From: a virus
Taxonomy: Duplodnaviria > Heunggongvirae > Uroviricota > Caudoviricetes
IMG/VR virus record: IMGVR_UViG_2541047734_000008
Span: 1 to 45,329 of that record
Strand: one strand, 5' to 3'
Length of the DNA stretch: 45,329 nt
Below are positions 2,319-45,329 of the stretch, one piece after another (positions within the stretch are counted from its first letter, which is position 1; every line of letters begins with the position of its first letter). Position numbers and translations under genes: made by a program. The notes below the pieces were generated by a model. That model was given only the letters and a program-made list of their open reading frames with translations, was not told the origin of the DNA and did no database searches.

Positions 2319-2744
2319 ATGGAATTACAGGACTGGCGAAAAGAACCTCGTAAAAACTATTCGAATGAATTCAAACTTCGTATGGTGGAACTGGCATCAC
2401 AACCTGGAGCTTGTGTTGCACAGATTGCACGTGAAAATGGCGTCAATGATAATGTTATTTTCAAATGGCTCAGGCTCTGGCAGAACGAAGGGCGTGTTTC
2501 GCGGCGTCTTCCGGTAACGACCTCTTCTGACACTGGCGTTGAATTATTACCTGTAGAAATAACGCCGGATGAGCAGAAAGAACCTGTGGCGGCCATTGCG
2601 CCGTCTTTATCCACTTCCACTCAGACCAGAGTCAGTGCCAGTTCCTGCAAGGTGGAATTCCGTCACGGTAACATGACGCTGGAAAATCCATCGCCAGAGC
2701 TGCTCACGGTGTTGATCCGTGAACTGACCGGGAGGGGAAGATGA
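2319..2744 (+). CDS. IS66-family accessory protein TnpA (orf1)
   Basis: 141 aa, MELQDWRKEPRKNYSNEFKLRMVELASQPGACVAQIARENGV... HTH-type; first ORF of an IS66 triad. Confidence 0.8.
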   Translation: MELQDWRKEPRKNYSNEFKLRMVELASQPGACVAQIARENGVNDNVIFKWLRLWQNEGRVSRRLPVTTSSDTGVELLPVEITPDEQKEPVAAIAPSLSTSTQTRVSASSCKVEFRHGNMTLENPSPELLTVLIRELTGRGR

Positions 2745-3091
2745 TCTCACTCCCATCAGGTACCCGTATCTGGCTCGTTGCCGGCGTTACCGATATGCGT
2801 AAATCCTTCAACGGACTGGGAGAACAGGTACAACATGTGCTGAATGATAATCCCTTCTCCGGTCACCTGTTTATCTTCCGTGGCCGACGGGGTGACACCG
2901 TCAAAATTCTTTGGGCTGATGCTGATGGTCTGTGCCTGTTCACCAAACGCCTGGAGGAAGGCCAGTTTATCTGGCCTGCGGTACGTGACGGCAAGGTATC
3001 CATTACCCGCTCGCAACTGGCAATGCTCCTCGATAAGCTGGACTGGCGTCAGCCAAAAACATCCAGCCGTAACTCACTGACAATGTTGTAA
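2741..3091 (+). CDS. IS66-family TnpB (orf2)
   Basis: 116 aa, overlaps orf1 stop (ATGA); MISLPSGTRIWLVAGVTDMRKSFNGL... typical IS66 Orf2. Confidence 0.8.
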   Translation: MISLPSGTRIWLVAGVTDMRKSFNGLGEQVQHVLNDNPFSGHLFIFRGRRGDTVKILWADADGLCLFTKRLEEGQFIWPAVRDGKVSITRSQLAMLLDKLDWRQPKTSSRNSLTML

Positions 3092-3121
3092 AAAACTCCT
3101 GACCGCATTATAAAAACGGTC

Positions 3122-5945: not shown

Positions 5946-8900
5946 CCCGACGCGATGACTGCATAATTGACACAACCCTGCTGTCGATCAGATCCACCAG
6001 TCCCCTGGCTGAGCGCGCATCTATCTCGCCATTGCTCCCTTGATTCTGAATGCTGATGTGATACACGGGAGAATAAACAAATCCACCGCCACCATTCACA
6101 TTTCCAATGGCCCTGACCCCAAGAGAGCCGTCCGCTGCCCGTGTCAGTGGCATGATTGCTTCAGGCCCGGCCTCGCCCATCAACCCGGCACCTTTCGCAA
6201 AAGCAAAATACGTCGGTGTATCCACAATAGTGTTACTGTAAGCACTCAGATTTGCCGATGTGTAAACACCACCTTTTGCGTTTGCCACTGCACCGGAAAG
6301 CCAGTCGCCGACTGTACCAAGCCATCCTCCGGCACCGGACATGCTTTTGGAAAGTGACTTCAGCCCGTTAACGATGGCAGCGTTCATCAGAATTTTTGAA
6401 ACTTCCTGGAGAATTGAACTCCCCCAGTTTCTCCAGTCCACAACATTTCCGGCCAGTGCATCGGAAATATTTGATACCAGCCCGTCCATCGTGGAAACGA
6501 CAGCATCTGCCGCCTGTGAAGCATAATCGGTGGCACTGTCTGCCCAGTTGGTCAGTCCCTCCTGGAGTCCGGCATTCCAGTTATTACGTAAAGCATCGGC
6601 CTTTGCATAATAATTCTGCTGATCGCTGAGACGCTCTTCCAGATATTTTTTATTCAGTTCTTTCTCCTGTTTCCACAGGGCTTCTTCAATTTCTCCGGCC
6701 TGATACTGTCTCAGCAGCTCGTTATTTTTCTGCTCAAACGCCTGCCGGATACTCCACATTTCCTGGAGTCGTTCACGCATCCGTGAGCCTTCACCATATC
6801 CCAACAACTGCGCTTCGTCAGATGCCCGGGCACTGGCATTACTGTCCGCCAGACTGCTCTCATACGCAGCAAGCTGCTCACGAATCTTTTTCTGGTCGAT
6901 GAGTGCTGCATTCTGCAAAAGCGTTTTTTTCTGCGCTTCTGACAGGGTTGATAATTCGCCCTGACTGACCTGATATTTCATCTTAGCCAGTTCAGTATTC
7001 TGCCCTGCCAGTGCTATTTGTTCTTTTTGCTGTTTAATCAGCCGTTTATAAATATCTTCTGTTTTTTCCGCTTCGGTCTTTTTATGCGCTTTGGGTTTAT
7101 TTGCCTGGTTATTTCGCCAGGCATCCAGTGAGTTATTGATATAATTCTGCCTGGCTGTCTGATACGCCTCTCCCACAAAGCCGAGATCATCCGCAGCATA
7201 ACCCAAGCGGGCACGCTCACGGGCTTCCCCCTTCAGGCGGGACAGAGCCAGTTCGCGCTCGCTGTTATTCAGTGCAGTCTGCTGTTTATCATCCAGGGTT
7301 GCCTGTGGTAGCCGTAACGGTACATTCACCAGCCCCTGTCGCTGCTGAAGTAATTCATTACCGAGCCCGAGAAGGCGATTAAACTCGGTATGCTGCCCAT
7401 TCATGATCAACAGGGACTGATACGCTTTGTTTTGTTCCGCGGCCTGTTGACGGATCAACGCCACCCGTCGCTCCTCCAGCCCGGCAAGCACATCCTGAAT
7501 GGATTGCGCTTTGCCCTGCATTTGTGTGAGACGGGACTGTTCAACTGCCAGTTGATTTGTTGCTTCTGCAAGCCCTTCTGTGACAGTTTTTACCGACGTC
7601 ATGTGGTTAATCATAAAACCGTTATCGGTTGTCCAGCCCGGGTTTGCCAGCACATACTGATAGCCAGCAATTTTTTCCTGTAAGGATTTAATCTTACTTT
7701 TCTGCTCGTCAATTAACCTGTTTTGCTCATCAAGTGCCTGCCGCGTCATTTCCTCATTATCTGACGCTTCAGGAAGCGACATTGCCGACGTTTTCTGGCG
7801 AATTTCGTCGATTGTTGCGGCATACTGGCGTGCAGATTCTCTGGCCTGCTCCTGATTCTGATACATCGTGTACCAGGCCGTCGCCCCCAGCATGACGAGT
7901 CCCGGCACACCACCAACCAACCCCAGCGCACCACTTAACAGACGACTCCCCACTGACGTGACAGTATTCAGCGTTGTCTGTGCCGCTGTTCTGGCCGCAA
8001 TATTACGGGTAAGTGACGCCTGGGCAGCTGTCAGCTTCGCTTCTGCTGCGGCCTGCCTTTCGGTACCGCGAGCAGCAACAACCGCCTGTTGCGCACGATA
8101 AACCGCCGCACGCGCCCTGGCGGTTGCTATCTGTGTCCCCCGAAGTTGCGCTTCAGCAAGAGCCACTTCGTTTCTGGCTGCAGTAATTAATCCGGCAGTT
8201 GCAGATCCAGCAGACGACGCCATATTGCCAAAATATCGGGCTACCCCGACGGCAACCAGTGCGCCAGCTGCAGCAGCCACGGTATCAATATTGTCTGCAA
8301 CACCATTCAACACCCCGGTGAGTGTCTTTGTCACTCCGCTTGCCTCGTTCGCACCACCAACCCAGGCCATAAAGGCGTTTTCAACTTTGGTTGCAGAGGA
8401 TGAAACAGTATCAGGCATTGCTGCATATTCATCACGCAACGCCCCAAGCTGACTAATCAGTGCAGGAACAACCTTATCGGCGGTCAGTTTTCCGTTATCC
8501 GCCATGGCCTTCAGATCCTTACGGGCAACACCCATTCCCGCAGCCAGCGCACGAATAACACGATCGCCGTTCTCATTCACAGAGTTAAATTCTTCACCGC
8601 GCAGCACTCCCTGCGCCAGTGCCTGACTGAACTGCGTGATCACCGAACTGGCTTCTGCTGTACTGGCACCGGATAATTTCAGGCCCGTGGAGATCGCCTC
8701 GGTGACTTTCAGTACCTCCTCAGAACTGTAGCCATACTCCCGCATGGAAGCTGCAGAGCGGGCAAAAAGGCTGGCGTTATCAGAAAACGCCGTTCCCGTT
8801 CTCTGGCTGATTGCCATTAATTCACGTTGTGATACCTGAAAATCATCACTGGACTGTGAAGCCTGCTTCAGACGGGCATTTACTGAATTCCACTCATCGG

Positions 8901-36016: not shown

Positions 36017-36092
<76 letters not shown>

Positions 36093-36094
36093 AT

Positions 36095-36171
<77 letters not shown>

Positions 36172-36172
36172 A

Positions 36173-36249
36173 CTGGACCGCCACCGGGGACTCGAACCTC
36201 GCACACTCAACTTAAAGGGTTGACGCTCTTTCCTGATGAGCTAGTGGCG
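36173..36249 (-). tRNA. Atypical tRNA-like gene, anticodon UUU (Lys) by position, with C at position 33
   Basis: Acceptor CCGCCAC/GTGGCGG, anticodon stem TCAAC/GTTGA, loop CCTTTAA, T-loop TTCGAGT with one T-stem mismatch, CCA encoded. Confidence 0.5.
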
Positions 36250-36250
36250 G

Positions 36251-36326
36251 CTGGTGGCCCTTGCTGGATTTGAACCAGCGACCTGGCGATTATGAGTCGC
36301 TCGCTCTCACCACTGAGCTAAAGGGC
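36251..36326 (-). tRNA. tRNA with CAU anticodon (Met or lysidine-modified Ile2)
   Basis: Acceptor GGCCCTT/AAGGGCC, anticodon loop CTCATAA, T-loop TTCAAAT, CCA encoded. Confidence 0.75.
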
Positions 36327-36430
36327 CGGGCGCAGGATAATAACGTTACGAAATCAATGTTGCAAGCATTCAAAAATCACCCTTATCTCCTCCACTAGCG
36401 CATTCACCATGTCTATCCGAGATAAGTGGC

Positions 36431-39070: not shown

Positions 39071-39226
39071 TTACTCCTCAGGTTCGTAAGCTGTGAAGAC
39101 AGCGACCTCCGTCTGGCCGGTTCGGATTCGTACCTCGCAGAGGTCTTTCCTCGTTACCAGTGCCGTCACAATGACGGTTAAACAGATGACGATCAGGGCG
39201 ATTAACATCGCCTTTTGCTGCTTCAT
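39071..39226 (-). CDS. hokD: Hok/Gef-family membrane toxin (HokD/RelF-like)
   Basis: MKQQKAMLIALIVICLTVIVTALVTRKDLCEVRIRTGQTEVAVFTAYEPEE: TM helix plus conserved Cys and Hok-family C-terminus. Confidence 0.85.
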   Translation of the reverse strand: MKQQKAMLIALIVICLTVIVTALVTRKDLCEVRIRTGQTEVAVFTAYEPEE

Positions 39227-39463
39227 AGCCTGCTTCTCCTTGCCTTTCGGCACGTAAGAGGCTAACCTAGATTTGCCGTTCATAGATTGAGCCTCAGATT
39301 AATGTTAAGCGTCTTGCCGGACGCGTAATGTTAACTGGGGCTTTTCTCTATCTGCCTTTCAGTGTTCATGCCTGAGACAGATAGCCTCAAGCACCCGCAG
39401 CCATTCTACTTAACTCACGTCACCTCGCCAATATGAAATCAATCAGAAAGGTGATCCATAAAA

Positions 39464-41935: not shown

Positions 41936-42361
41936 TCAATGTACTGCCACAGCATTTCCTGCCGGGCCACCACGGTTCATCTGATTGAAACCGGCGATTG
42001 CCACTGCGACAAAATCATCAGCGTCTCTCACCAGTCGCTCCCGCGTCTCCACCAGCTCCCGAAAATAAGCTGAACTGTGGCTGCGCATTCTGGCCACCAG
42101 CAAAGGTGGCATTGCCTTTTCGATCGCTGGTAACAACGCCTGAATTTTTTCAACTGCATCAGGGGTGTCTTTCTCTACCCAGCGGAAAATTTTCTGGGTA
42201 TTGCGAGCCAGGGCTTCCGGATGGCTGTCGTCATACAGTTCTGGGAACGTCATACCCAGTTCAAAATAAGCCCTGGTTATTTCAGCTGCCGGAACTTTTT
42301 CACCGTCCGGATGCGCCCAGGCATTCATCGCCATGCGGATGTGTTCATGCTTGATTTTCAT
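41936..42361 (-). CDS. YdaT-like regulatory protein (cII-position analog)
   Basis: 141 aa, MKIKHEHIRMAMNAW..; between cro-like and O-like genes. Confidence 0.5.
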   Translation of the reverse strand: MKIKHEHIRMAMNAWAHPDGEKVPAAEITRAYFELGMTFPELYDDSHPEALARNTQKIFRWVEKDTPDAVEKIQALLPAIEKAMPPLLVARMRSHSSAYFRELVETRERLVRDADDFVAVAIAGFNQMNRGGPAGNAVAVH

Positions 42362-42626
42362 GAATCAAGCTCCTAGAAAGTGGTTGTGTTAACGTTTTGG
42401 TATCTTCCAGCTCGGGCCAAATATTCATCCAATCAAAAGGCCTTAGTTGCTGACGTGTAACTTCACCATTACTGGCTCGCTCAATAAGGACGCATAACGA
42501 TGCCCCTAACACTTGACCTTTACTCAATGCCTTTCTTAGATAACCGATGCTGGTACCACACTCGCATGCAAACATACGCTGTTCATCTGACGAAAGAGAA
42601 TTGAGAAATATTCTTAATTCTTCCAT
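42345..42626 (-). CDS. Cro/YdaS-like HTH regulator
   Basis: 93 aa, ..CGTSIGYLRKALSKGQ.. HTH; divergent from the repressor gene. Confidence 0.6.
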   Translation of the reverse strand: MEELRIFLNSLSSDEQRMFACECGTSIGYLRKALSKGQVLGASLCVLIERASNGEVTRQQLRPFDWMNIWPELEDTKTLTQPLSRSLIHENQA

Positions 42627-42653: not shown

Positions 42654-42733
42654 AATACCCACAGGTAAACAAAAGTCAATACCCACAGGTTGTTTACCTT
42701 GCGGTAATCGCATCTATTATTTACCTATGGACA
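42654..42733. promoter_or_regulatory. Divergent promoter/operator region of the immunity switch with repeated TACC-N4-GGTA sites
   Basis: AATACCCACAGGT at 42654..42666 and 42679..42691; TACCTATGG overlapping the repressor start codon. Confidence 0.55.
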
Positions 42734-43146
42734 AATATGAATTTAGACGACAGCAACTCATCAAAATTCGTGATGAGAAATGCGATGGTAAAGCGGTTAA
42801 CGTGGCCAGAAAGATCGGGCGCGAGCCTTCTTATGTATCAAGAATGTTGTACCCAGAGGGGAAAAAGGGAAAAAAACGGATCGCTGATGATATGGTGGAG
42901 ATTATCGAAGAGTCCTTTGGGTTACCCCGGGGATGGATGGATGGTATCGTTTCATCATCAACGAACACAGCCTCCAGTTATGAAACAAGGGTTCTAACGC
43001 CACGACAACGTATTTTTTTAGATCTCTTAGACGAACTGCCAGAAAGTGAAGCGGATAACTTATTAAAAACTCTTGAAGAGAAAAAACAGTATTACAATAT
43101 GATCTACGAAGAAATCCGTAAAAAGAAAGCACAAAACGCATCATAG
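42727..43146 (+). CDS. DicA-like HTH repressor
   Basis: 139 aa; HTH ..AVNVARKIGREPSYVSRML..; C-terminus ..FLDLLDELPESEADNLLKTLEE.. resembles DicA. Confidence 0.65.
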   Translation: MDKYEFRRQQLIKIRDEKCDGKAVNVARKIGREPSYVSRMLYPEGKKGKKRIADDMVEIIEESFGLPRGWMDGIVSSSTNTASSYETRVLTPRQRIFLDLLDELPESEADNLLKTLEEKKQYYNMIYEEIRKKKAQNAS

Positions 43147-43188: not shown

Positions 43189-43225
43189 TACCCATGGGTA
43201 TTTACTTTTTAAATACCTATGGGTA
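43189..43225. promoter_or_regulatory. Palindromic operator-like sites downstream of repressor gene
   Basis: TACCCATGGGTA (perfect 12-bp palindrome, 43189..43200) and TACCTATGGGTA (43214..43225). Confidence 0.5.
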
Positions 43226-43411
43226 TCCTTCTTTTCATACCAACCCACCCCGCCCCACAGAATGCAGGGCAATACTTCGAGTTACCAGGCAGTGGTCAGG
43301 GGTTAAGTAGCCAGCCCGAGGCGTAAGAACATGACGGCAGGGTTCAACTTTAATAACTATGCAGCAGGTTTTTGTTCCGCTACCCCAGCGTTAAGGGGAA
43401 ATGAGGTCAGC

Positions 43412-43567
43412 ATGGATACTATCGATCTTGGCAACAACGAATCTCTGGTGTACGGCGTGTTTCCCAACCAGGACGGCACGTTCACCGCGATGACGTATAC
43501 CAAAAGCAAAACGTTTAAAACCGAAAATGGTGCCCGTCGCTGGCTGGAAAGAAACTCAGGTGAGTGA
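43412..43567 (+). CDS. YdfA-like small protein
   Basis: 51 aa from MDTIDLGNNESLVYGVFPNQDG..; GAGG RBS 6 nt upstream. Confidence 0.6.
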   Translation: MDTIDLGNNESLVYGVFPNQDGTFTAMTYTKSKTFKTENGARRWLERNSGE

Positions 43568-43568
43568 T

Positions 43569-43697
43569 ATGGATTTCGACACAATCATGGAAAAGGCTTA
43601 CGAAGAATACTTCGAAGACCTTGCCGAAGGCGAAGAAGCTCTCAGCTTCAGTGAGTTTAAACAGGCGCTTTCCAGCTCGGCAAAATCTAACGGCTGA
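43569..43697 (+). CDS. YdfB-like small acidic protein (42 aa; below ORF-track size cutoff)
   Basis: Hand-translated MDFDTIMEKAYEEYFEDLAEGEEALSFSEFKQALSSSAKSNG*; starts 1 nt after the ydfA-like stop. Confidence 0.55.
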   Translation: MDFDTIMEKAYEEYFEDLAEGEEALSFSEFKQALSSSAKSNG

Positions 43698-43726
43698 TAA
43701 GCGAAGTAGCACCGCGAGGAATCAGT

Positions 43727-43945
43727 ATGCAGAAACGAGAACCCGTCATAATCGCGCCAGACTATACCGATGATGAACTTTATGAGTGGATGCGCCAGAA
43801 AATTAATGCAGCGCAGGATCTGAAATGGGCCAATGAAGCCAGGGCTAAGCAGGCTGAAAATCTGTCCGCTCTGGAGCAGGATATCACCAGGCTGGAAAAA
43901 GCAGCGGCATTAAGCATTGCCAGAATGATTACATACCCGCGTTAA
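43727..43945 (+). CDS. YdfC-like protein
   Basis: 72 aa; operon position after ydfA/ydfB-like genes. Confidence 0.55.
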   Translation: MQKREPVIIAPDYTDDELYEWMRQKINAAQDLKWANEARAKQAENLSALEQDITRLEKAAALSIARMITYPR

Positions 43946-43967
43946 TAGCTAACCAACGAGGCTAATA

Positions 43968-44297
43968 ATGGAATTTAAAGATTTACCAATGCAATTCCAG
44001 GAAATGGCAGCGAATATAGTTCGTTCCCAACTGGCGACTCTTGACCTGAGTACCGTAGAAAAAGAAACCATCGATACTATATCCGGTAACGTGCGTCGTG
44101 CCTTTATCGGTCTGTACGAAGAGAAGCAGCTCTCTGATAACCAGGATTTACATGAAAAATACTTCCTGGATCTAATGGACATCATTAATAAGGGGTTTGG
44201 CTTGTTAATGGAAAAGAAAGGGATTCGGATAGAACCCCTTGAAAATTGCTTCGTAACAAGAAGCATCAATTCTTTTGATTCAAAACAAGAGAATTAA
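43968..44297 (+). CDS. Hypothetical protein
   Basis: 109 aa ORF continuing the rightward operon. Confidence 0.45.
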   Translation: MEFKDLPMQFQEMAANIVRSQLATLDLSTVEKETIDTISGNVRRAFIGLYEEKQLSDNQDLHEKYFLDLMDIINKGFGLLMEKKGIRIEPLENCFVTRSINSFDSKQEN

Positions 44298-44541
44298 TTA
44301 CAGATTTAACATGCTCTTTCTCATGATTGAAGCTCTCAGGGTTGAAAGTGCCCGGCTGAAGCGAGTCGATATAATCAACGAGATTCTTTCGTACCGTTTC
44401 ATCTTTATTCATGGCAGATGCAAGGTATGAAATTGCTAACAATGTTATATCACTACGCGCCGCAGCATGCTGTAGTGTTTTATCAAAATCATTAATTTTC
44501 CGTATAAGAGAGTTAAGAGTTTCATTGACATCAAACCCCAT
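44266..44541 (-). CDS. Hypothetical protein (convergent)
   Basis: Start at MGFDVNETLNSL.. preceded by AGGAGG 7 nt upstream; the track's 202 aa extension is not supported. Confidence 0.5.
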   Translation of the reverse strand: MGFDVNETLNSLIRKINDFDKTLQHAAARSDITLLAISYLASAMNKDETVRKNLVDYIDSLQPGTFNPESFNHEKEHVKSVINSLVLNQKN

Positions 44542-44875
44542 TTCATCCTCCTGAGGGTTAGTAATTAAGGAGTTCTCCACGGGTGAGGTGGAGTGCGTGC
44601 GCCGGACACGGGTGAGCATCCGGCACTGACAGTTTACTGAAAGGATATCTCCCTGAAAAGTCAGGGCATAACGCGAAAGCGCACGGCGAAGTTGTTGGTT
44701 CATAGATAGCCTGTCGTTAAATTTTCGTCGACCGTGCGCTTCCGGTTGTGGCACTCCGCGAAATGGCGCGGCGGTAAGTATGGCGGGGTTATTCCTTCCC
44801 CGTTGAGGACACCGGGTTGTCAGGTTGACCATACGCTTAAGTGACAACCCCGCTGCAACGCCCTCTGTTATCAAT

Positions 44876-44928
44876 TTTCTGGTGACGTTTGGCGGTATCA
44901 GTTTTACTCCGTGACTGCTCTGCCGCCC
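44876..44928 (+). ncRNA. dicF: DicF-like small RNA (cell-division inhibitor sRNA of Qin-type prophages)
   Basis: TTTCTGGTGACGTTTGGCGGTATCAGTTTTACTCCGTGACTGCTCTGCCGCCC followed by TTTTT matches the remembered DicF sequence; context ydfA-ydfB-ydfC upstream. Confidence 0.7.
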
Positions 44929-45095
44929 TTTTTAAAGTGAATTTTGTGATGTGGTGAATGCGGCTGAGCGCACGCGGAACAGTTAAAACCAAAAACAGTG
45001 TTATGGGTGGATTCTCTGTATCCGGCGTTAATTGTTAACTGGTTAACGTCACCTGGAGGCACCAGGCACCGCATCAACAAAGTTCATTTGTAAAA

Positions 45096-45329
45096 ATGGA
45101 GATAATTATGATTGCTCATCACTTCGGAACTGATGAGATTCCTCGTCAGTGCGTGACTCCCGGTGATTATGTTATTCATAAAGGAAGAACATATATTGCT
45201 TCGGTAAACAACATTAAAAAACAACGGCTCTATATTCGTGATTTTTCCACACAACACTGTATTAAGGAAACCATGATTAAAGTCTTCCTTGGTCGTGATG
45301 GTTTACCTGTAAAAGCAGAGTCATGGTGA
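45096..45329 (+). CDS. Hypothetical protein in dicB-equivalent position
   Basis: 77 aa ORF downstream of DicF; no clear resemblance to the remembered DicB sequence. Confidence 0.4.

Follow-up and report, generated by a model that had tools for sequence, protein, structure and literature searches.

Loci comparable to the one analyzed here have been described in two cryptic prophages of E. coli K-12 and in phage lambda. The dicBF operon of the cryptic prophage Qin has the order ydfA-ydfB-ydfC-dicF-dicB-ydfD-ydfE (b1571-b1577), and its small RNA DicF arises solely by processing of a transcript that starts at a promoter upstream of ydfA (PMC10448788). Pairing with ftsZ has been proven genetically for K-12 DicF, an RNA of the same sequence as the one found in the present locus (PMC5069750). 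The kilS-kilR region of the cryptic prophage Rac comprises ydaG-ydaF, sieB, kilS and kilR (b1352-b1355, b4833), and the C-terminal 12 or so residues of KilR are needed for the inhibition of FtsZ and MreB (PMC12482147). In lambda, the early-left operon transcribed from PL is repressor-controlled and, ahead of the recombination genes, encodes a division inhibitor that targets FtsZ (PMC3961180; partly general knowledge). The Kil protein of lambda is unrelated in sequence to Kil of the KilR type (PMC5793797).

The window, that is, the whole stretch of DNA that was analyzed (45,329 nucleotides, IMG/VR record IMGVR_UViG_2541047734_000008), carries at its right end what is very probably the early-left (PL-type) operon of a lambdoid E. 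coli prophage, in which a sequence-identical dicF is kept, dicB has been swapped for kil and a two-gene cassette has been inserted. The prophage, which strains NDM1, 20Ec-P-124 and NCTC9699 also carry, shows full head, tail and lysis modules; the element may nevertheless be defective, given that the identical copy in NDM1 has a frameshift in its integrase gene.

The immunity region precedes the operon. A Cro-like or YdaS-like regulator of 93 aa (42345-42626, minus strand; phrog_35, E = 4.8e-23) is divergent from the repressor gene; its match to the Pfam family YdaS_toxin was below the cut-off (25.8 bits), and it is annotated as a transcriptional regulator in the identical NDM1 prophage. The repressor itself (139 aa, 42727-43146, plus strand) occupies the position of CI or DicA and matched phrog_5736, "transcriptional regulator", at E = 4.4e-70. 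Its C-terminus bears a weak resemblance to DicA (NF007257, 23.9 bits; cut-off 101), and a gene of equal size and position is annotated as CI repressor in phage Tritos. Between the two genes lies an OR-like operator cluster (42656-42706) with exact TACC-N4-GGTA palindromes at 42656 and 42695, degenerate copies and the repeat families D2, I1, I3 and I6. Two OL-like operators, TACCCATGGGTA at 43189 and TACCTATGGGTA at 43214, were located on the plus strand upstream of ydfA (43189-43229). The palindrome occurs four times in the 45-kb window, where 0.28 copies are expected and none of 100 shuffled sequences held four or more, and all four sites are confined to the cI/cro intergenic region and the region upstream of ydfA. 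A putative early-left promoter would overlap the OL-like operators, with a -35 hexamer TTTACT (43201-43206) and a -10 hexamer TATCCT (43224-43229), together a weak match (8/12). The RNA of this region folds into a hairpin (-22.9 kcal/mol, z = -6.4) with a U-rich tract behind it, and the inverted repeat might just as well serve only to terminate the repressor transcript. Homology to the ydaG leader of Rac starts at 43236, directly past the predicted transcription start, and DNA homology to Qin starts just 38 nt before ydfA. The operon is probably controlled by the prophage's own repressor and operators and not by DicA.

The three small rightward ORFs that the original prediction had placed upstream of DicF, one of them a 42-aa ORF, were confirmed as ydfA, ydfB and ydfC. 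The first (51 aa, 43412-43567) belongs to DUF1391 (Pfam PF07151, E = 1.7e-28) and is annotated as ydfA by PGAP; the second (42 aa, 43569-43697) matched phrog_2061 at E = 1.1e-26, aligned to K-12 b1572 and is also annotated by PGAP; the third (72 aa, 43727-43945) matched phrog_1744 at E = 1.9e-39 and aligned to K-12 b1573. All are on the plus strand, and the stretch containing them (43374-43965) is 97.6% identical to K-12 Qin DNA in the same orientation.

The segment described in that prediction as a 53-nt DicF with a T-rich tail (44876-44928, plus strand) proved to be exactly this. It scored 76.7 bits against Rfam RF00039 (gathering score 48; E = 2.6e-15 for the whole window), matched positions 1-52 of the model, which is its full length, and was identical to K-12 dicF (b1574) at 53 of 53 nucleotides, so the alignment to Qin gave a significant identity and not the lack of one that would have spoken against the claim. 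Directly 3' of dicF is TTTTT, the U5 tail of an intrinsic terminator, which ends at 44933. When folded, the RNA showed an unpaired 5' region (nt 1-15) and a terminator hairpin (nt 16-52) followed by UUUUU; the folding energy was -15.9 kcal/mol (z = -2.3), and the MFE and centroid structures were concordant. By these features the segment is a bona fide DicF with the exact K-12 sequence rather than a mere homolog. Complementarity to ftsZ was found as well: nt 21-53, the 3' half, are predicted to form a duplex of -27.9 kcal/mol with ftsZ positions -29 to +3, which covers the RBS. The duplex energy separated only moderately from the control, as 33 of 500 shuffled sequences paired equally well, and because of this the claim of pairing rests on the identity with the tested K-12 RNA. 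In the RefSeq gene tables examined for genomes with this locus, dicF was not annotated. Another prophage sRNA, svsR, which limits phage infection (PMC12803456), was considered as a DicF relative and rejected, since it maps to the 3' end of the cI gene and resembles co293.

Directly before DicF there are 334 nt without a conserved ORF (44542-44875). The original prediction had taken some 330 nt of noncoding DNA in this place as a departure from the Qin layout, and this was mistaken: positions 44556-44875 correspond to the normal precursor spacer of K-12, where the ydfC-dicF gap measures 340 nt, 320 of them homologous to the window, and the identity is 97.4% when the spacer is taken together with dicF and the greater part of the leader that follows. 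The spacer is predicted to be structured (-144 kcal/mol, z = -3.0). A long stem pairing 44667-44690 with 44728-44750 was recovered in an alifold analysis of 59 spacer variants, and the RNase III cut that yields the 190-nt form of DicF would be expected at about 44739-44744, within the region of this stem. The structure is supported by its energy and by the K-12 literature and not by covariation, because just 1 of 101 pairs in the alifold of the 59 variants showed a double-sided change. A plus-strand search between the cassette and DicF found no sigma-70-like promoter of at least 9/12, and the best candidates for an internal sigma-70 promoter serving DicF or kil (8-9/12) were no better than the shuffled expectation.

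Downstream of DicF, a three-way alignment of the window, Qin and Rac revealed a conserved leader (44934-45107, plus strand) common to the dicF-dicB interval of Qin and the kilS-kilR interval of Rac. A Qin/Rac recombination joint lies inside it at about 45079-45090, and the sequence beyond is Rac-like. In BLAST, homology to Qin ends at 45088 and window positions 44923-45329 match Rac at 82.5%. The leader reached 37.9 bits against the Rfam family STnc100, a sub-threshold score (cut-off 47). An 18-mer of the leader found 25 matches in species-representative genomes; 13 belonged to Escherichia, Shigella or Citrobacter and the other 12, in unrelated taxa, were judged to be chance matches. The next gene (45108-45329, plus strand) encodes 73 aa, is annotated as kil by PGAP and ends with its stop codon at the end of the window. 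That the ORF following DicF does not resemble DicB had been stated beforehand and held true, since this ORF is a Rac-type kil without DicB similarity. Its product matched NCBIfam NF008465, "FtsZ inhibitor protein", over residues 1-73 of 73 (140 bits against a cut-off of 92) and phrog_294 at E = 7.9e-33, and it shares 59 of 73 residues (81%) with Rac KilR. The last 19 residues are identical, so the C-terminal tail critical in KilR is kept intact. Window Kil is, as far as its sequence tells, a KilR-family inhibitor of FtsZ. A tblastn search with DicB and YdfD found nothing downstream in the window.

Upstream of DicF, the window departs from Qin by a two-gene cassette of 590 bp (43966-44555), which is absent from K-12 Qin. 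By BLAST, window positions 43374-43965 correspond to 1971-2562 of the K-12 locus (L003) and positions 44556-45088 to 2563-3094; because the K-12 coordinates are contiguous, this is a clean insertion directly after ydfC. The convergent minus-strand gene announced in the original prediction is indeed present before DicF, at 44266-44541; the real difference from Qin, however, is the whole insertion, and its 109-aa plus-strand gene had been overlooked. Of 5426 E. coli genomes, 198 have the complete cassette. Other prophages fill the slot that separates ydfC from the spacer in at least five different ways, and genes like the plus-strand one lie upstream in about 47 of some 125 DicF contexts.

This plus-strand gene, ORF109 (43968-44297), encodes a hypothetical protein with a match to phrog_6937 (E = 4.3e-67). 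Alignment of homologues showed a conserved N-terminal part of about 55-63 aa and a variable C-terminus; three further families, phrog_1363, 2151 and 9419, are matched by the N-terminal part only. All named sources of its 235 homologues are Escherichia or Salmonella, and none of the homologues has a functional name. The AlphaFold2 model, of low confidence, is helical (pLDDT 68.8), and Foldseek found nothing below E = 1 in the PDB. ORF91 (91 aa, 44266-44541, minus strand) is supported as a gene by a Shine-Dalgarno sequence AGGAGG at 44548-44553, 6 nt before its ATG at 44541, by a pN/pS of 0.35 in its own frame, where the two remaining frames give 0.76-0.83, and by its annotation as a 276-nt gene in strains STEC388 and 4750. 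It is followed by a plausible intrinsic terminator at 44240-44218 (hairpin of -12.9 kcal/mol, z = -2.8). A convincing promoter was not found, the best candidate being an 8/12 match on the minus strand with its -35 hexamer starting at 44659, a score that does not exceed what shuffled sequence gives. Eleven homologues were identified, whose named sources are all E. coli, and a profile search added one remote full-length relative, P0138 (E = 3.2e-5).

Searches for a function of the two proteins gave nothing functional in Pfam, PHROG, NCBIfam or PADLOC and nothing in a PDB sequence search. For ORF91 there was no match in Pfam, PHROG or NCBIfam, just BrxA at E = 0.024 (12 bits) in PADLOC, and none better than E = 0.5 in PDB sequence and fold searches; its AlphaFold2 model was of low confidence (pLDDT 60.7), and Foldseek gave no match below E = 1 in the PDB. 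A HMMER profile search of 1.84 billion representatives returned fragments and one remote 92-aa relative; two long proteins, whose matches were broken up into several short segments, were judged spurious. BLASTP detected no homology among the minus-strand ORFs of different cassettes. P0138, the relative linked to ORF91, resembles a 92-aa variant by eye, and at most two cassette types may thus share a fast-evolving family. ORF91 shares its slot and orientation with sieB of Rac, a likeness of position and orientation only. Against Rac SieB it gave a BLASTP E of 1.3, and no similarity of sequence or fold was found that would identify it as a SieB-like exclusion gene.

The proposed working of the operon follows that of Qin. 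Transcription would start at the repressor-controlled promoter just 5' of ydfA, with the 139-aa repressor acting on the TACC-N4-GGTA sites, and the transcript would pass through ydfA-ydfB-ydfC, ORF109 and the structured spacer of about 320 nt. RNase III and RNase E would excise DicF as in K-12, with its hairpin and U5 as the 3' end; the K-12 processing is carried over to the window because the precursors are 97% identical. In an Hfq-dependent manner, the 3' half of DicF would pair with the ftsZ RBS and reduce ftsZ translation, and its 5' end would repress xylR, pykA and manX, effects demonstrated by experiment for K-12 DicF, which has the same sequence. Transcripts that run past the DicF terminator would lead to kil expression by way of the leader conserved between Qin and Rac, the shared segment within which recombination probably exchanged the protein arm, Rac-type kil for dicB. 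Since kil replaces dicB beside an intact DicF, a double block of FtsZ would be retained, its synthesis lowered by DicF and its ring disrupted by Kil. The cassette would contribute a second, convergent small gene with its own Shine-Dalgarno sequence and terminator. Less DicF and kil could be made if ORF91 is transcribed against the operon or if Rho ends transcription within the untranslated spacer.

Three other explanations of the locus have to be weighed. A Qin-type dicBF operon in decay, with dicB lost or pseudogenised and DicF a relic, might be read from the partial DicB pseudogene that PGAP places, in several genomes with the locus, at the equivalent of 44998-45081, and from the integrase frameshift in NDM1. 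We consider it very improbable. The supposed "DicB, missing C-terminus" was rejected as a dicB remnant because it is a frame of the leader, also open upstream of the intact dicB of K-12, and in the window this frame ends in a stop before kil while 0 of the 62 codons of real dicB are present. Furthermore, the switch from Qin-like to Rac-like sequence is clean and is followed by an intact kil with its native Rac-type Shine-Dalgarno sequence and leader, DicF is conserved at 53 of 53 positions behind a spacer 97% identical to K-12, and the isolated phage Evi has the same architecture. Lower still do we rate the idea that the 330 nt or so before DicF code on the minus strand instead of serving as an RNA-processing spacer. 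A frame contiguous with ORF91 is stop-free from 44874 to 44266, RefSeq WP_001317923.1 (145 aa) is annotated in several genomes, and the 145-aa form P0003 represents 481 member sequences. Yet the extended ORF of 145 or 202 aa was rejected, because among the 59 distinct spacer variants the variable sites number 29 at the first codon position, 32 at the second and 40 at the third, which gives no periodicity, and about half of the variants carry one to three in-frame stops. K-12 has the same spacer with no downstream ORF to join, and the strong AGGAGG lies 6 nt before the ATG at 44541, the start used by other annotations.

An intact but effectively silent DicF is unlikely too, though less so. Here the cassette, the convergent ORF91 unit and the extra untranslated RNA would block or attenuate read-through, and DicF and kil would be uncoupled from derepression. 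K-12 DicF indeed lacks its own promoter and depends on the one upstream of ydfA (PMC10448788), a convergent gene with Shine-Dalgarno sequence and terminator is placed between that promoter and DicF, and the plus strand from the cassette to DicF holds no sigma-70-like promoter of 9/12 or better. However, the hairpin that the plus strand forms where ORF109 ends is weak and has no proper U-tract, the ORF91 promoter is unconvincing at 8/12, the exact DicF core is kept in cassette-bearing loci, ORF109-like genes being upstream in those 47 or so contexts, and the isolated phages Evi and mEp460_ev081 have cassette-bearing operons. A PL-type operon with a working DicF and kil is the reading that we prefer. 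As a more speculative extension, in which we place little confidence, the slot between ydfC and the spacer might be a diversity hot spot where the variable C-terminal half of ORF109-type proteins and a fast-evolving convergent protein of the ORF91 type are swapped, the unit forming either a new lysogen-expressed pair for superinfection exclusion or defence, or an antisense brake on DicF and kil.

The DicF-kil arrangement is not unusual. Of the 60 best E. coli records, 55 have the junction at 98.5% identity or more, which puts it in at least 55 complete genomes of this species, and kil follows DicF in 7 of about 125 contexts, gathered from an IMG/VR scan and separately retrieved loci and including the window. 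Lambdoid phages are expected to exchange modules at conserved linkers, and the locus is a case of a known sRNA taking part in this routine shuffling; DicF, ydfABC and Kil are already characterised or routinely annotated. For annotation, the 145-aa minus-strand protein and the "partial DicB" pseudogene of PGAP are here both artefacts. DicF, for its part, is not bound to DicB or DicA: it accompanies either of two unrelated FtsZ inhibitors, under different immunity repressors, and this independence bears on studies that take "dicBF" as a unit, for example those of the multiple dicF copies in EHEC. KilS of Rac, which occupies the same slot, seems to be a divergent relative of DicF, a kinship that suggests an ancestral module of an sRNA plus a division inhibitor, whose halves assort independently.

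Compared with Qin, the window shares the ydfABC genes (97.6% DNA identity), a dicF identical at 53 of 53 positions and the operon's orientation with respect to a divergent pair of repressor and Cro-like genes. In contrast, Qin is without the 590-bp cassette that follows ydfC, its dicB, ydfD and ydfE are replaced by kil from about 45079 on, and in identical genomes a RecE-like exonuclease lies past kil, beyond the window. Control of the DicA/DicC type was not found either, as the repressor resembles DicA in its C-terminus only (those 23.9 bits against 101) and the operators differ. With Rac, the window shares a Kil 81% identical to KilR, a kil leader and Shine-Dalgarno sequence of Rac type, a terminator-hairpin sRNA about 175-180 nt upstream of the inhibitor gene and a DUF1391 gene upstream; the region upstream of ydaG is 86.6% identical to the leader 5' of ydfA. 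Both sieB and ORF91 are antisense genes situated after the DUF1391 genes and before the sRNA, and each converges on the gene ahead of it and overlaps it, whereas the SieB protein has no similarity to ORF91, and ydfB and ydfC of the window are of Qin type. KilS reaches just 39.1 bits with the DicF model, whose cut-off is 48, and in our own reading of the three-way alignment it is without the ACUCC stretch that faces the ftsZ RBS, whereas the window sRNA is a true DicF. The lambda PL operon with kil and the window operon are alike as repressor-controlled early-left operons encoding an FtsZ-directed inhibitor; to our knowledge, lambda has neither DicF nor the ydfABC genes. The closest order is that of phage Evi (LR597642.1), which shows ydfC, a plus-strand ORF with the conserved N-terminus, a convergent small ORF, the spacer, an exact DicF, kil and a RecE-like exonuclease. 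The slot of Evi is filled with another cassette, which has an ORF of 135 aa on the plus strand and, on the minus strand, an unrelated ORF of 77 aa; the immunity region of Evi is different as well.

An exact copy of the 53-nt K-12 dicF gene (b1574), followed by TTTTT, lies on the plus strand of the window at 44876-44928. The Rfam DicF model RF00039 matched positions 44877-44928 (+) with 76.7 bits (E = 2.6e-15 in a search of the whole 45-kb window; gathering score, 48). The DicF segment with a T-rich tail of the original prediction was thus correct in identity and coordinates, as shown by alignment with Qin dicF, and the RNA folded as expected, with 15 unpaired nucleotides at the 5' end followed by a terminator hairpin (-15.9 kcal/mol, z = -2.3). 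Experiments in K-12 with the identical RNA have shown that the 3' half pairs with the ftsZ ribosome binding site and blocks translation, and that the 5' end regulates xylR and pykA (PMC5069750). The complementarity to ftsZ was also found by computation: DicF nucleotides 21-53 pair with ftsZ positions -29 to +3 at -27.9 kcal/mol. Since this duplex stood out only moderately against shuffled controls, the assignment of ftsZ as a target rests on the sequence identity to K-12 DicF.

The three small rightward ORFs predicted upstream of dicF are ydfA (43412-43567, +; DUF1391, E = 1.7e-28), ydfB (43569-43697, +; 42 aa) and ydfC (43727-43945, +). BLAST comparison with the K-12 dicBF locus of the Qin prophage placed window positions 43374-43965 on K-12 locus positions 1971-2562 (97.6%) and window positions 44556-45088 on 2563-3094 (97.4%). 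Because the K-12 coordinates are contiguous across these two collinear blocks, the additional 590 bp of the window, located directly after ydfC, represent an exact insertion at 43966-44555. The claim that about 330 bp of noncoding sequence before DicF distinguish this layout from that of K-12 had to be abandoned, as the ydfC-dicF gap of K-12 measures 340 nt, 320 of them homologous to this stretch. From 44556 onward, up to DicF, the window has the usual ydfC-dicF spacer, which belongs to a normal DicF precursor. In K-12 no separate promoter drives DicF, which is excised from a transcript starting upstream of ydfA, RNase III cleavage giving a 190-nt form and RNase E the 53-nt form (PMC10448788). 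In the window, the spacer folds at -144 kcal/mol (z = -3.0) and contains a long stem (44667-44690 with 44728-44750) that a consensus fold computed from 59 variants of the spacer also shows. By expectation the 190-nt form would start at about 44739-44744, within the 3' arm of this stem. Covariation was sparse, with double-sided changes in only 1 of 101 pairs, and lent no independent support to the fold.

Two genes make up the inserted cassette, ORF109 (43968-44297, +) and ORF91 (-; start ATG at 44541), which converge and share 32 nt at their 3' ends. The convergent minus-strand gene had been foreseen, whereas the plus-strand ORF109 of the same insertion had not been mentioned. No stop interrupts the minus-strand frame over 202 codons, as far as the DicF boundary, and in some genomes PGAP extends the gene to 145 aa. 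The extension, to 145 or 202 aa, is spurious: among 59 distinct spacer variants the variable sites numbered 29, 32 and 40 at codon positions 1, 2 and 3, stops occurred in frame in about half of the variants, and the ATG at 44541 is preceded at 6 nt by AGGAGG and is the start annotated in other genomes. The 91-aa ORF itself looks protein-coding, with a pN/pS of 0.35 in frame versus 0.76-0.83 out of frame when compared with an allele of 78% amino acid identity. A plausible intrinsic terminator follows its stop codon on the minus strand (-12.9 kcal/mol, z = -2.8). Since ORF109 ends on the plus strand in a weak hairpin without a U-tract, transcription could plausibly continue toward DicF.

The slot between ydfC and the spacer showed five fillings among the DicF contexts examined, one of them being the empty K-12 state. 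The four filled types carry a plus-strand ORF with a common N-terminus of about 55-63 residues (MEFKDLP...GLYEEK) and a differing C-terminus, and each has a different minus-strand ORF of 73-92 aa whose start codon is always 13-14 nt from the spacer boundary. Searches of Pfam, PHROG, NCBIfam, PADLOC and PDB, together with homologue, profile and fold searches, assigned no function to ORF109 or ORF91. In the Rac prophage, sieB occupies the same place and orientation as ORF91, where it converges on and overlaps the DUF1391 gene ydaF; no sequence similarity between ORF91 and SieB was found, and the likeness is positional only. Between this cassette and that of comparison locus L156 (1539-2112), pS was 0.31 in ORF91 and 0.05 in ORF109, which suggests either that another recombination boundary lies within the cassette or that the evolution of ORF91 has been accelerated.

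In a three-way alignment, the window, Qin and Rac share a conserved stretch of about 150 nt following the sRNA terminator. The window departs from Qin at about 45079-45090, from where it is identical to the leader and Shine-Dalgarno sequence of Rac kilR. As predicted, the ORF following DicF does not resemble DicB; it is kil (45108-45329, +), which had not been recognized as such and which matched the NCBIfam model NF008465, FtsZ inhibitor protein (140 bits; cut-off 92), and phrog_294 (E = 7.9e-33). Its product shares 59 of 73 residues with Rac KilR, including the last 19, and the C-terminal tail of KilR is essential for its action on FtsZ and MreB (PMC12482147). Genomes identical to the window have genes for a RecE-like exonuclease, an integrase and tRNA-Ser after kil. 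No real dicB coding sequence is present downstream of DicF in the window. The "DicB, missing C-terminus" pseudogene that PGAP places at the position corresponding to 44998-45081 (+) is an open frame of the conserved leader and no dicB remnant, for this frame is equally open upstream of the intact K-12 dicB. This annotation is a recurring RefSeq/PGAP artefact at the locus, as is WP_001317923.1 (44266-44703, -; 145 aa), in which the 91-aa ORF is over-extended and runs into the spacer of the DicF precursor. The RefSeq gene tables examined for this locus do not list dicF. Against Rfam STnc100 the leader (44930-45115, +) scored 37.9 bits, below the cut-off of 47. The same element also precedes isrK and the C4 antisense RNA in Shigella, E. 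coli and Citrobacter prophages (comparison loci L134, 3012-3154; L145, 6505-6647; L155, 5479-5618), and so may act as a linker, for regulation or recombination, that these prophages have in common.

In Rac, the slot homologous to dicF is occupied by KilS (b4833), reported as a new sRNA in the 5' UTR of kilR (PMC8175672). KilS (positions 7406-7503, - strand, of the Rac locus L006) is the positional homologue of window 44876-44933. The DicF model (cut-off 48) gives its 3' half a sub-threshold 39.1 bits, with E = 4e-7 when 500 nt are searched. The two RNAs have their stem base and terminator in common and, as read from the three-way alignment, KilS lacks the ACUCC stretch that faces the ftsZ ribosome binding site. 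By these sequence comparisons KilS qualifies as a sub-threshold DicF relative. A stretch of 16 nt in KilS, AUUGCUGUGUGUAGUC, agrees exactly with the RprA consensus; we found no paper noting either this match or the kinship with DicF.

DNA homology to Qin begins only 38 nt before ydfA, and the Qin dicB promoter and DicA operators are therefore absent from the window. A 139-aa repressor (42727-43146; phrog_5736), only weakly DicA-like at its C-terminus, is encoded divergently from a 93-aa Cro/YdaS-like gene (42345-42626), and the two form an immunity pair belonging to this prophage. Exactly four copies of the 12-bp palindrome TACC-N4-GGTA were counted in the 45 kb (0.28 expected; none of 100 shuffles reached four), at 42656 and 42695 between these two genes and at 43189 and 43214 just upstream of ydfA. 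Their likely role is that of OR- and OL-type operators for the phrog_5736 repressor, in an immunity type that is uncharacterised. A weak putative promoter (-35 TTTACT, 43201-43206; -10 TATCCT, 43224-43229) overlaps the OL pair, and homology to the transcribed leader of Rac ydaG begins at 43236, right after the predicted start site. As RNA, the OL pair forms a strong hairpin with a U-rich tail, and hence may also terminate the transcript of the repressor gene. Elsewhere in the prophage, a hok/sok type I toxin-antitoxin module was located at 39221-39396 (-; Rfam sok, 111.9 bits), with hokD annotated in the identical prophage of strain NDM1. Four tRNA genes (36021-36327, -; Ile, Lys, Thr and Gly in the NDM1 annotation) adjoin the Q antiterminator gene. 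Between the DUF977 gene and hokD, at about 38.5-39.1 kb by correspondence to NDM1 record positions 1891754-1892419, an annotated gene for QueH (epoxyqueuosine reductase) is an unusual tRNA-modification moron.

Of the 60 best-matching complete E. coli records, 55, O121:H19 STEC and ECOR29 included, have the whole 470-nt DicF-to-kil segment with at least 98.5% identity; further full-length matches of about 90% identity include O157:H7 and O145 strains. The complete cassette was found in 198 of 5426 E. coli genomes, and cassette, DicF and this kil together in about 10 records, three at 100.0%. About 125 DicF contexts were compared: those that the exact DicF core picked up in a scan of IMG/VR, those of the reference loci and that of the window itself. 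DicF was followed by dicB in 108 and by kil in 7 (counting the window and Escherichia phage Evi), with neither in range in 10; upstream, ORF109-like genes were found in about 47 and ORF91 in 6. Every upstream/downstream combination was seen, which is typical lambdoid mosaicism. Several prophage contexts of dicF are known (PMC5069750), and the literature searched held no discussion of the DicF-kil pairing. All protein genes of the locus are already annotated in public genomes; the finding is real and amounts to a known sRNA within an ordinary mosaic of modules that are themselves known.

At this locus the prophage repressor would keep the operon silent; upon derepression a ydfABC-ORF109-spacer-DicF transcript would be made and then processed, and read-through of the DicF terminator would lead to kil expression. 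Phage Evi shows the same order of ydfC, cassette, DicF, kil and exonuclease but has a different cassette. In phage Tritos, DicF is explicitly annotated and dicB follows it. As in Qin, the operon of the window would in sum block FtsZ in two ways, a KilR-type Kil taking the place of DicB. The DicB of Qin reportedly has an activity, specific to DicB, on inner-membrane receptor proteins used by phages, and relative to Qin this activity would be lost.
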